Assembly (NCBI GenBank): GCA_964016885.1
Contig: OZ024760.1
Location: 16,430,001 to 16,494,000, forward strand
Reading direction: 5' to 3'
DNA length: 64,000 nt
Source: Eledone cirrhosa
Taxonomy: Eukaryota
In this document: piece by piece, positions 1,762 through 59,886 of the stretch
How positions within the stretch are numbered: position 1 is the first letter of the stretch
How the letters are laid out: each line of letters starts with the position of its first letter
Position numbers and translations under genes: made by a program
The notes under the pieces: generated by a model
Seen by the model: the letters and a program-made list of their open reading frames with translations, nothing else
Database searches by the model: none
Told to the model about the DNA's origin: nothing

Positions 1762-1792
<31 letters not shown>

Positions 1793-1793
<1 letters not shown>

Positions 1794-2092
1794 TTATCGT
1801 TTTCGGTGTGCCTGGCTGACTGAACTCACTCGATATGCAAATTAGGCTGCTCAGCCGTCAATATGCATAAGGAAAGTATATACTTTCAGACGTTCAACCA
1901 TCTGGCAGGAAGGTATACGATGCTGATGATAGCTAATAAGCTTGAAACTAGTACATCGTTCCTGTGTCAGTGTTGAACAAAAAGGTGACGTGGTTGCCTA
2001 AACACTGTACGGCGTAATTCGGGCTGTTTGTTTGTTTACAAACAAACAGCCCGAATTACGCCATTATAATAAATGTTCGGTAAACCGATACG
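1793..2092 (+). mobile_element. Hammerhead-bearing non-autonomous element (Penelope pLTR/retrozyme-like) in a (TA)n tract
   Basis: Contains octamer ATGCAAAT (1835-1842), a palindromic TATA-like box (1872-1887), a hammerhead (1906-1964) and a 25-bp fold-back (2011-2062). Homologous to 59565-59775 on the minus strand. Confidence 0.65.
1906..1964 (+). ncRNA. Minimal type I hammerhead ribozyme
   Basis: Stem I ACGATG/CATCGT, extended by CAGGA/TCCTG after a bulge. Core CTGATGA (1923-1929). Stem II AGCT-AATA-AGCT. GAAA (1944-1947). Palindromic mini stem III ACTAGT. GUA cleavage triplet (1951-1953). Confidence 0.8.
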
Positions 2093-2691
2093 TGCATGTA
2101 TATATGTGTGCATGCATGTATATATATATACATACTACTGTACGTCTGTATACATATATGTATGTACGTATACATACATACATACATACTTATATATATA
2201 TAATTATATATATTTATGTATATATTTATAAAATATGTTAGATGTACTATTGTTGGTATAAGTGGAAATGTGAGAAGACATGAGAGAGAAAGAGAGAGAG
2301 AGAAAGAGGGGGAGATAGCAACTAAAATACTGAGTGGCAGACTGCAGGTTTTGAACACCTAAATATTTGAAGCTTTAGCACTCTATTATGCTCTATTATG
2401 CTATTATGTGAGGACAATTGCTTTACACAGACACACACACTCTCTCTCTCTCATACACACAGATTTGCAGGCCTTCATAGTACAAAATATAAGGTCTGCT
2501 ACATTATTCATAGAAGGAGGTTGTGTGTATACAATTTAGCAATTTAGAATGGGTACACTGTGGCGTGAGATGTGACCAAAAGGGTTGGTGTCAGGAAGGA
2601 GACTCATCTATAAAACTACATGTATCCAGTTTAGAATAGGTACATTGTAACCCTACATGTCATATGAAACAACCAAAAGGGTTGGTGTCTA

Positions 2692-33800: not shown

Positions 33801-35457
33801 ACTTTTTATCATGACACCAGCACTACCACATAACAGGGTGGATTGGGAGCTTTTTATCATGACACCAGCACTACCACTTTACAAGGTGGACTGGGAACTT
33901 TTTATCATGACACCAGCACTACCACTTTACAAGGTGGACTGGGTACTTTTATTATGGCACCCTCACTACCACTTTACAAGGTGGACCGGGTGCTTTTATT
34001 ATGGCACCAGCAGTGCCACTTTATAAGGTGAACGGGTGCTTTTCATTGTGGCACCAGCACTGCCACATTACAGGGTGGACTGGGTGCTCTTTATTGTAGG
34101 GCCAGCTCTGCCACTTTACAAGGTGGACTGGGTACTTTTCATCAATGCATCAACAATTACATGATTAACAGGGTGGACCGGGTGCTTTTTATTGTGGTAC
34201 CAGCAATTACACATCTCTTCCGATGTTAAAAGACATTTCTACTTACTTGCTTCAATGGATTTGTGTCTTTAGAATGTTCTAGAGTAGATTCTTGTGTTTT
34301 TGTCCCATCATTGGACTGGGTCTGGGACAGTACTTCAGGGAGGACTTCATTCTCAACATCACAGCCATCAGCAGCAGTATGATCCTTCTTATCACCATCA
34401 TCATCATCATCACCTCCATCATTAACAGCACCACTGTCACCATCATCATCATGACCAACATCAACATCTGCAGCAGTGTGGTTGGCCCCACCCCCACCAC
34501 CGCCATCATCACTATTGTCATCATCATCATGACCAACATCAACAACATCTGCAGCAGTATGGTTGTCCCCACCCCCACCAGCACCACCATCATCATCACT
34601 ATTGTCACCAACATCATCATGACCAACATCAACAACATCTGCAGCAGTATGGTTGTCCCCACCCCCACCAGCACCACCATCATCATCACTATTGTCACCA
34701 ACATCATCATGACCAACATCAACAACATCTGCAGCAGTATGGTTGTCCCCACCCCCACCAGCACCACCATCATCATCACTATTGTCACCAACATCATCAT
34801 GACCAACATCAACAACATCTGCAGCAGTATGGTTGTCCCCACCCCCACCAGCACCACCATCATCATCACTATTGTCACCAACATCATCATCATCATCCAA
34901 CAGGGACAAGTCATCAGTTAAAGCACATTTTTTCCATTTATGGTGAGTGAAATACCTAGGACAATTAGAAATATATGCTTTGTAAATATATATATACACA
35001 TGTATGTTTACACACACACACACACACATATATATATAAGGGTATGTCAATATTTATTTATAAAACTAACCTATATTATATTTTATCTGATGAAAGCGCA
35101 CCATAGTTTGCTCTGGTGGCCCTTGAAATATGTATAATGAAATAAATATGGTTTTATAAATATAGTTTCCATTTGTTAATATATTGTATATATATATATA
35201 TATATACACATACATATATATACATATACATACATATATATATATATATACATGTATATATATATATACATGTATATATATATACATACATATATATATA
35301 TATATATACATACATATATACATACATATATATATATATATACATATATACATACACTATACATATGTATATATATACACTATACATATATATATATATA
35401 TACATACACTATACATATATACACGTACATATATATACATACACTATACATATATAC

Positions 35458-50283: not shown

Positions 50284-52457
50284 TATATATATCTTTTTCT
50301 CTCTCTCCTATTCCAGGGATGTTCTCAGGCCTTGCTGTTCTGTTTGTCTGTGTCACCTTCTGTGTCCACACCTACATATTTGTCTGGGAAGATGACTGGA
50401 GACAGAATCTCAAGAATTATCTCATGTAAGGCACCCATTTATATATATGTATATACATTAATTAGGATTTTATAAGGTTGTCACAATCAATCGAAATATT
50501 TGATAAAACTGAAATTTATTCTATTATTACCAAATATAGAAAGGTCAAAGAAAAAGAGATTCTTTATATATATTTCTATACATTTCCACTTATTTTTTTC
50601 CAATAATCTTCAGTTTGTATGGAATTTTACTCCATACAAACTCTGAATACTGACCGACGAGGAGATCTCCCACCCTCCTTGAGGGTAAGTGAGAGAAGTC
50701 TTCTCTTGTGGAAATGGATATAGCTTTCATTATGTAAAATTTCCATATTTTTCCTTATTTCTCTCCATTTTTTGGGCACTTTTTTCCATGGTACTTCCAT
50801 TTGGATTTTTAGAAGTTGGCAGATCTAAACGAACACATGCACACACATACAAACACATACAAACACACAAACAAACAAATAAACACACAAACACACACAC
50901 AAACAAACACACACATATATTTACATATACAGTTGCAGTTCTAAGTGTGTTGTCTCTCCATCTTCCCTGACAGGTGTAAAGTAGAAGCTACAGTGACCAA
51001 CTTGACTACATCAGTCTGTGATTCCTTCTTTGAAAATAGACCCAACCTTATTGCTACTGAGATTCACATCTTCTCTTACTTTGGTGCTGGAATTGTGATG
51101 AGTTCTTGGTCTTGGAATAAAGCATCTCTCTCAGCCTGGGAACGATTCCTACGCAAGTATGGCTTCTTTTATTGTATCTATGTTTTTATATTGTATCTGT
51201 ACTATTTCTATATTGTTTTTATATTGTATCTGTACTATTTCTATATTGTTTTTATATTGCATATTGTATATATTTTGTCTCTATATTATCTCTACATTGT
51301 ATTTGTACTGTCTCTATATTGTATCTATATGGTCTCTATATTATTTCAATATTGTATCTATATAACATTCTGGCTTTGGGACTGCGTGGCTGTGTAAACT
51401 TATAGTATTATGACCATGTGACTATTTGACCTTGCAGTATTATGACCTTGTGGCTATTTAACCTTGTAGTATTATGACCATGTGGCTATTTAACCTTGTA
51501 GTATTATGACCATGTGGCTATTTAACCTTGTAGTATTATGACCATGTGGCTATTTAACCTTGTAGTATTATGACCATATGACTATTTGACCTTATAGTAT
51601 TATGACCATGTGGCTATTTGATCTTGTAGTATCATGACCATGTGGCTATTTGACCTTGTGTTATGATCTCGTGGCTATTTGACCATGCAGTATTATGACC
51701 TTGTGGCTATTTGACCCTGTAGTATTATGACCTCGTGGCTATTTGACCCTGTAGTATTATGACCTCTTCGCTATTTGACCTTGTAGTACTATGACCTCTT
51801 CGCTATTTGACCTTGTGGTTGCTTGAACTTGTGGGTTGTTTTACCATGTCTGTAGGAGAGGTCAGTAAACACACTGCTTCCATTGTAGGGTGTTCCGGAA
51901 ACCGTCCAGTCGTACAGTGAAGTTAAAAAGACACAAGATGATTGCCAAGGCATTTGCTAAAAGGAAGGAAATAAACAGCGGCCGTATCTCCATCAGTTTC
52001 TACAGCACACACGATGACCCACTAGGTAACCTATATCATCATTCATCATCATCATCATTTCATTTTACGTCCACTTTTCCCTGCTTGCAAAGGTGGGACG
52101 GGAACTGTTTCTGGCTTGATTTCTACAGCTGGATGCCCTTCCTAACACCAACCTCATTTACAGTGAGTGCTGGGTGCTTTTTTTGCCGTGGCACCTCCAC
52201 CACCACTTTGCAGTGGAATGATAGGGACTGGGGTCCCTATCATCTCATTTCTACAGCTGAGTAAACTGGAGCAATGTGAAATAAAGTTTCTTGCTCAAGG
52301 AAACAACACATCAACCGGTCTGAGAATTGAACTCACAACCTTTCGATTGCAAGGCCAATGCTCTAACCACTAAGCCATGTGCCTCCATATATATACTCTT
52401 TTACTCTTTTACCTGTTTCAGCCATCCGGTTGAGGCCATGCTGGGGCACCGCCCTTG

Positions 52458-52490
<33 letters not shown>

Positions 52491-52894
52491 CGGTGTGAGA
52501 ATTGAACTCACAACCTTTTGATTGCAAGGCCAATGCTCTAACCACTAAGCCATGTGCCTCCATATATATACTCTTTTACTCTTTTACCTGTTTCAGCCAT
52601 CCGGTTGAGGCCATGCTGGGGCACCGCCCTTGATATATATATACACACACACACACACACACCCGGTGTGAGAATTGAACTCACAACCTTTTGATTGCAA
52701 GGCCAATGCTCTAACCACTAAGCCATGTGCCTCCATATATATACTCTTTTACTCTTTTACCTGTTTCAGCCATCCGGTTGAGGCCATGCTGGGGCACCGC
52801 CCTTGATATATATATACACACACACACACACACACCCGGTGTGAGAATTGAACTCACAATCTTTCGATTGCAAGGCCAATGCTCTAACCACTAA

Positions 52895-52928
<34 letters not shown>

Positions 52929-59522: not shown

Positions 59523-59525
59523 ACA
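59081..59525. repeat. (TA)n compound repeat
   Basis: (TA)n interleaved with TCTCCTCTCTGTATTTATATTTATTT. Confidence 0.95.
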
Positions 59526-59564
59526 CACATGGGTTATGGGAACATTAATAATAATGTTTGATTC

Positions 59565-59775
59565 GTTTGTAAACAAACGGCCCCATTTGAAGCTGTGCCG
59601 TCCCTGTGACCGGTCGTCGCCTGTTTGTTCAACACTGGCTTTGAGGAGCAACCAACATGTTCCTGGGTCATCACCCTTTATCAGGACTGTATTCCTCTCT
59701 GCCAATGTGTTGAACGCTTGAAAATATATAGTATTTTCTAAAGTATACATCGGCTGAGTCACTTCATTTGCATAC
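59565..59775 (-). mobile_element. Diverged homolog of the 1793-2092 element with a decayed hammerhead (59649-59689)
   Basis: Same order of blocks: TATGCAAAT, CTCAGCCG, TATA palindrome, CGTTCAAC, TGGCAG, hammerhead, CAGTGTTGAACAAA, GTTTGTTTACAAAC. Confidence 0.65.
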
Positions 59776-59835
59776 CACGCAATAAGAATTTTATTTCTCG
59801 CTCTAGCACAGCTGATACATAAAAGTAAGCAAGCA

Positions 59836-59886
<51 letters not shown>

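Follow-up and report, generated by a model that had tools for sequence, protein, structure and literature searches.

Two copies of a real, high-copy and coherent superfamily of non-coding repeats lie in the 64,000-nucleotide stretch of the Eledone cirrhosa genome analysed here (the window). Our preferred reading, to which we assign a probability of about 0.6, is that these repeats are tandem-unit hammerhead retrozymes with an internal snRNA-type promoter, that they are read through by Pol II, self-cleave as dimers and circularise, and that they are inserted into (TA)n by Penelope-like elements (PLEs). The core of this reading, a retrozyme dependent on PLEs, is common to the Pol III and host read-through alternatives considered below and is highly probable.

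According to the preferred reading, Pol II would start near position 1907 and read through T-runs into the next unit, with the promoter travelling inside the RNA. Two hammerheads would pair via their palindromic stem III and cut at NUH to give unit-length RNA, which a host ligase would close into a circle. A PLE protein supplied in trans (an RT-endonuclease) would nick (TA)n and allow reverse transcription from one of two internal sites, and copying of more than one unit would rebuild the tandems. More tentative, and close to but short of an even chance in our estimate, is the specific proposal that a chimeric promoter, combining a Pol III-class block with a Pol II-class snRNA element, was assembled and has been kept across at least five lineages, drives the read-through concatemers, rides the RNA circle and uses Neptune-type PLE proteins at two start sites. 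If that proposal is true, the family, with its tens of thousands of copies, would be a self-promoting, viroid-like genomic parasite and would offer a natural test of how snRNA polymerases are chosen.

Two points have remained open for animal retrozymes, namely which machinery transcribes them and which inserts them. Retrozymes seem to lack promoters according to a 2020 review (PMC7761336), and the available text of a 2026 preprint (bioRxiv 10.64898/2026.07.22.740005) argues PLE dependence from co-distribution and phylogeny only. The family described here bears on both points through direct genomic signatures: promoter motifs matched to the host's snRNA genes and, in an element that encodes no protein, the tail expected from two PLE start sites. 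Novelty lies in this direct tail signature and in the hybrid promoter with its native-matched motifs; the retrozyme kind itself is already known. The element also provides precise positions, with a predicted start near 1907, a predicted cut after 1953 and two priming sites.

Repeat unit, lineages and the copies in the window

The features of the two copies are as follows.

1768..1791, no strand: (TA)n target on the 5' side of copy 1
1792..2192, +: copy 1, lineage A, a single 5'-truncated arm ending at the "short" 3' site (3' end at about 2192)
1834..1846, +: octamer-containing block of copy 1, matching the block of the genome's U6, U6atac and RNase MRP promoters
1835-1842, +: octamer within this block, ATGCAAAT
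1850..1857, +: TCAG-containing motif, at -56 relative to the predicted start, where U1/U2/U4/U5 promoters have their conserved motif
1872..1887, +: TATA palindrome, in most lineages still a hairpin despite altered sequence
1892..1978, +: extended helix that closes the ribozyme, 1892-1898 pairing with 1972-1978
1907, +: predicted transcription start, 30 nt downstream of the beginning of the TATA, the native snRNA gene spacing
1917..1959, +: type I minimal hammerhead, predicted cut at GUA, 3' of A1953
1917-1922/1954-1959, +: stem I, 6 bp
1923-1929, +: CUGAUGA core
1930-1943, +: stem II, 4 bp under a U.U mismatch
1944-1947, +: GAAA
1947-1952, +: palindromic stem III
2011..2062, +: perfect 52-bp palindrome, in copy 1 only, likely a fold-back during copying
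2093..2189, +: TA/TATG tract inside the repeat unit of copy 1
2193..2231, no strand: (TA)n-like target on the 3' side of copy 1
59524..59842, -: copy 2, lineage B, which has lost about 35 nt upstream of its promoter block
59720..59774, -: promoter-like region of copy 2
59774-59762, -: promoter block
59758-59751, -: TCAG motif
59738-59720, -: TATA hairpin
59649..59689, -: hammerhead of copy 2, with two copy-specific core changes and a predicted GUU cut between 59654 and 59653
59684-59678, -: core CTGATAA of copy 2, with GGAA as the second core segment

The octamer, the TATA palindrome and the hammerhead of both copies lie where a preliminary description of this DNA had placed them, and stems I, II and III of copy 2 pair as it had given them. 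Its account of a solo 300-bp insert has to be revised. Copy 1 measures about 400 bp (1792 to about 2192), since its unit is 446 bp long and includes the TA/TATG tract that follows 2092; it covers approximately unit positions 1-390 of 446 (L001 1500-1897). The unit, at about 450 bp, is tandem: units are joined head to tail, and one array holds at least six. Unit length is 446 bp in lineage A, 430 bp in its variant A3, 456-502 bp in its variant A2 and about 410-427 bp in lineage B. The TA/TATG tract is internal to the unit in lineages A, B and D and is missing from lineage C. GC content in four units is 0.35-0.39, and the units are non-coding, the longest stop-free frame in an element dimer measuring 83 aa.

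The family is large, with at least 19,800 copies. In the 3.0-Gb host genome, a pattern combining the octamer block with the hammerhead core has 19,802 exact matches and its reversed control has none, so that the combination of promoter and hammerhead motifs occurs far beyond chance. A first genome search gave about 2,650-2,800 candidates for each window copy; over 300 bp, the 40 that were scored for copy 1 share 95-96% identity with it, and identity to copy 2 is 78-90% in its scored set. A profile search returned 8 matches in 5 of 40 random 10-kb stretches, which extrapolates from these 40 stretches to about 60,000 units genome-wide (95% range 26,000-118,000). Five or more lineages can be distinguished (A with its variants A2 and A3, B, C, D and E), about 65% identical to each other, with D and E each known from one full promoter-plus-ribozyme copy. 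Related pieces also occur in DNA contigs from sequencing runs labelled as two other organisms. One possible RNA run gave no match to lineage A or B stretches, an outcome that carries no information on expression.

At the DNA level the element has the composition of a non-LTR retrozyme: tandem units of about 150-450 bp (slightly longer in A2), a type I hammerhead, no coding capacity and a GC content under 45-50%. With the metazoan non-LTR retrozymes (PMC7229834; bioRxiv 10.64898/2026.07.22.740005) it shares non-coding tandem units of a few hundred bp with low GC, one type I hammerhead per unit and co-occurrence with PLEs. It differs from those described there by its motifs matching host snRNA promoters, by a minimal hammerhead of the PLE kind with palindromic stem III and a mismatch under stem II, by the TA microsatellite in the unit (A, B, D), and by insertions that directly show a two-start-site tail and inverted arms. 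No prior description of the family was found in the literature searched, so that it may be new to the catalogues; the main text of PMC7229834, in the portions available, does not mention octopus or cephalopods, and the available text of the preprint includes no molluscs in its sampling.

The hammerhead ribozyme

Rfam gives the 300-bp stretch a weak match to Hammerhead_HH9 with 20.4 bits (E 0.01), below the gathering score of 52; for the whole window, the 150 listed of 156 matches include no hammerhead. The covarying stems proposed in the preliminary description hold across lineages: across 17 aligned sequences, both partners have changed in 8 of 12 hammerhead pairs, and 88% of alignment cells are paired, compared with 19-45% when the alignment is slid, a level reached by 0/500 shuffles; these sequences are related, so the counts are not independent events and the shuffle result is not a probability. 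The rows of lineage C are out of register for stems I and III in this alignment, and that lineage was scored separately; for lineage E, known from one decayed copy, the score of stem I in the per-lineage tally is not correct. Stem III is fully self-complementary in all seven lineage representatives, stem I has 6-8 bp, stem II has 4-5 bp, and the cut triplets are GUA, GUU or GUC. The core CTGANGA is kept in 153 of 172 full-length matches (overlapping loci counted more than once). Copy 2 does have the CTGATAA/GGAA core that had been taken as a sign of decay, but the decay is specific to this copy, and most lineage B copies keep CTGATGA...GAAA.

These stem lengths, together with the self-complementary stem III, fit cleavage as dimers, as reported for minimal PLE hammerheads with palindromic stem III (PMC4209133). 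A dimer fold is predicted for lineage B; for copy 1, the dimer is not the minimum-energy fold. The lineage A unit has a strong predicted fold as a circle (z -7.9), due in part to the TA tract. The element RNA likely self-cleaves. Several points weigh against the preferred reading here. Lineage D has the G10.1-C11.1 pair described as highly conserved in PLE minimal hammerheads (PMC4209133), whereas A, B and C have mismatched U.U or A.A in its place; an autonomous PLE family of this genome carries the same U.U mismatch. Minimal PLE hammerheads are reported to cleave poorly in vitro (PMC4209133), 8 of 9 Xenopus hammerhead dimers did not cleave (bioRxiv 2026.07.22.740005), and insertion of an anole PLE does not require cleavage (PMC11167929).

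Other hammerheads are present as well. A third, unrelated type I hammerhead at 35030-35190 (+) of the window, with its core at 35087, ends in (TA)n and has relatives in loci L146, L147, L194, L198 and L218; it probably represents a terminal repeat from a different PLE family. A survey of 400 kb of random sequence (L183-L222) gave 21 hammerhead descriptor matches, including the family studied here, and several further minimal hammerhead families, often as inverted pairs. Inverted hammerhead pairs in L142 and L214 have one long and one short end each.

Insertion pattern and Penelope-like elements

The 3' ends of lineage A cluster at unit positions 3-5 and 381-394, which places two 3' start sites about 55 nt apart, and A2, A3, B, C and D end at sites homologous to these. 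Most of the 40 lineage A 3' ends run into (TA)n and two into (TC)n, in line with the (TA)n targeting proposed earlier; target duplications are unreadable within (TA)n. The 5' ends are scattered, and of 50 arm ends none coincides exactly with the cut site or with the predicted start. Inverted arm pairs number 16 in the 45 loci compared, and all 32 of their 3' ends fall within two windows that make up 17% of the unit; 12 of the 16 pairs combine one long and one short end (p 0.03).

PLE insertions are reported to show partial tandems, inverted 5'-truncated arms, an optional tail and a microsatellite bias (PMC8557442), and the PLE tail corresponds to the sequence between two RT start sites (PMC11167929). 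The 3' ends confined to two windows and the long-plus-short pairs match this two-start-site tail and these inverted arms. The element thus combines 5' truncation, partial tandems, an inverted 5'-truncated arm, a two-start-site tail and microsatellite bias, and the retrozyme/Penelope link suggested in the preliminary description now extends genome-wide through scattered 5' truncation, inverted arms and two fixed 3' ends. Likewise, PLE terminal repeats and Neptune-type PLEs (PMC4209133) resemble the element in their minimal type I hammerhead with palindromic stem III, (TA)n bias, 5' truncation, inverted arms and optional tail. Their tail, however, is 30-40 nt long compared with about 55 nt here, and the element has no ORF.

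Candidate sources of the insertion machinery are present in this genome. It holds 10,598 GIY-YIG candidates and RT+GIY-YIG PLE ORFs of 844-1096 aa; one PLE family has six ORFs that are about 97% identical, and young RT+GIY-YIG elements are present. Most PLE families sampled carry a CX4CXXC linker, a Neptune-type feature (PMC8557442). An autonomous element sharing sequence with the family was not found: in 0 of 36 PLE loci, a small sample of the 10,598 candidates, does the element bound an RT+GIY-YIG ORF as its terminal repeat, which counts against the preferred reading. Element copies near PLEs in L145, L147, L148 and L149 were considered as signs of an autonomous partner and rejected, as they are separate insertions parted by (TA)n. 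Downstream of the ORF in L150 and L140, a stretch of about 20 nt, AT-rich and located in a Neptune-type terminal repeat, resembles the lineage A long-end site and is a weak lead to a partner.

The repeats could instead be the orphaned terminal repeats of an unsampled autonomous PLE, or a DNA element of the rolling-circle type (Helentron/DINE-like) that contains a microsatellite. Units of DINE-1 contain internal microsatellites and hairpins, as do those of the element, and most PLE insertions are 5'-truncated to terminal repeats (bioRxiv 2026.07.22.740005). Against this alternative, the units are joined head to tail without an ORF, the longest stop-free frame being that of 83 aa. PLE protein matches occur in 3 of 91 element-bearing sequences compared with 4 of 40 random loci, and target-primed reverse transcription would account for 3' ends that are fixed, 5' ends that are scattered and arms that are inverted. 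We regard this alternative as very improbable.

Promoter motifs and the choice of polymerase

The snRNA promoters of this genome follow two different grammars. In 3 of 11 U6 loci, 1 of 4 U6atac loci and the single RNase MRP locus, the octamer block is found at -76 to -78; the remaining U6 and U6atac loci have no promoter pattern and look like promoterless retrocopies. It is absent from all 27 upstream 110-mers of U1/U2/U4/U5/U3 loci. These loci have a TATA-like box near -30, and TCAG is found at -55 to -58 in 11 of 14 U1/U2/U4 loci and in 7 of 7 U5 loci when CCAG is counted, the U3 form being TCAT. Put together, native Pol III genes (L061, L062, L063, L095, L223) show the octamer block at -77 and TATA at -30, and native Pol II snRNA genes (L073-L100, L224-L237) show AATTA near -90, TCAG near -57 and a TATA-like box near -30. 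Insects also have two snRNA promoter classes, which differ in PSE sequence and downstream element (PMC1761439). With both classes of this genome defined, its native U6-type promoter is usable for guide-RNA expression.

The element draws on both grammars and matches neither native class exactly. With the start predicted 30 nt after TATA, both window copies would begin at the A that follows TGGC; relative to it, TCAG stands at -56 and the block at -72. In a 15-position Pol II snRNA matrix, the TCAG site ranks first in six and second in two of nine element promoters. In lineages A, B and C, and weakly in E, the TATA-like box is preceded at a distance of 25-29 nt by a TCAG-type motif; no such motif is found in D, whose TCAG site ranks only 12 in the matrix and counts against the preferred reading. 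Lineage C carries three tandem 33-bp modules of block plus TCAG. The idea of a promoter, already part of the preliminary description, gains strength from this agreement with the genome's own snRNA-class promoters, and the motifs suggest that the element likely carries its own snRNA-type promoter and transcribes itself. Two further observations are counted against the preferred reading: AATTA near -90, found in 18 of 18 native Pol II promoters checked, is not evident in the two element sequences compared, and the block-to-TATA spacing is 42-45 in 9 of 9 element promoters as opposed to 46-48 in native Pol III promoters. Visual comparison of the downstream sequence with the Pol II snRNA 3' box gave no consistent match.

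The same retrozyme/PLE route could also be served by an internal Pol III type 3 (U6-like) promoter, with rare read-through of T-runs giving the templates. The 13-14 nt block was otherwise seen in this genome only in Pol III type 3 promoters, the majority block of lineage B equals the MRP block at 14 of 14 bases, and the block and TATA are kept in all lineages while TCAG is not. The spacing in 5 of 5 native promoters, however, exceeds that of the element by 2-5 nt. Moreover, sense-strand runs of T5-T8 lie inside the copied arms of lineages A2, A3, B, C and D, and native U6 and MRP genes end at T5-T10. Since the copied arms cross T-runs as long as the U6/MRP terminators, Pol II is favoured for the mobilised RNA, and we consider the Pol III version unlikely.

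The motifs might alternatively be relics or RNA-structure signals in a PLE-mobilised repeat that is transcribed by host read-through, with the hammerhead as a passenger. The TATA palindrome is conserved across lineages as a hairpin, with covariation, and RNA structure may account for part of its conservation; the view of retrozymes as promoterless in the 2020 review and the lack of lineage A 5' arm ends exactly at the cut site or predicted start point the same way. Against this, the block stays at a fixed distance from TATA across lineages with about 65% identity and is triplicated in lineage C, and the hammerhead stems still pair through many substitutions. This explanation is, in our judgement, quite unlikely.

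Internal promoters are described in other hammerhead repeats. Schistosomes harbour a hammerhead satellite named SM-alpha. That repeat has an internal promoter, which is described as Pol III (PMC2220036), whereas the element motifs are of the upstream snRNA type. The closest precedent, by analogy, is satellite 2 of newts and axolotl, a tandem hammerhead repeat that needs dimers (PMC7229834) and whose internal snRNA-type promoter is used by Pol II in newts (PMC2220036, citing Coats 1994). Satellite 2 differs from the element in sequence and lineage; the proposed element promoter instead joins a block specific to the host's Pol III type 3 genes, a Pol II-class TCAG and a TATA hairpin, and its copies are mostly dispersed insertions of 1-6 units in (TA)n.

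Some candidate explanations and tests were set aside. An internal A-box/B-box promoter was dropped after inspection by eye, and a link to the U1 gene array was discarded, as a lineage D copy adjoins the first array unit only. A Fisher test on the promoters (5/5 versus 0/24) carries no weight, the promoters being paralogous and the promoterless U6 copies having been left out.

Promoterless U6/U6atac copies (L107, L108, L111, L112, L096, L097) often stand directly after TA-rich or (TA)n tracts, which suggests that they were retrocopied into the same targets as the element. In some U6 array units (L067, L072) a SINE is inserted between the promoter block and the gene, and at 52230-52900 (-) of the window a tRNA-derived SINE head is repeated four times with a 173-bp period and internal (TG)n.
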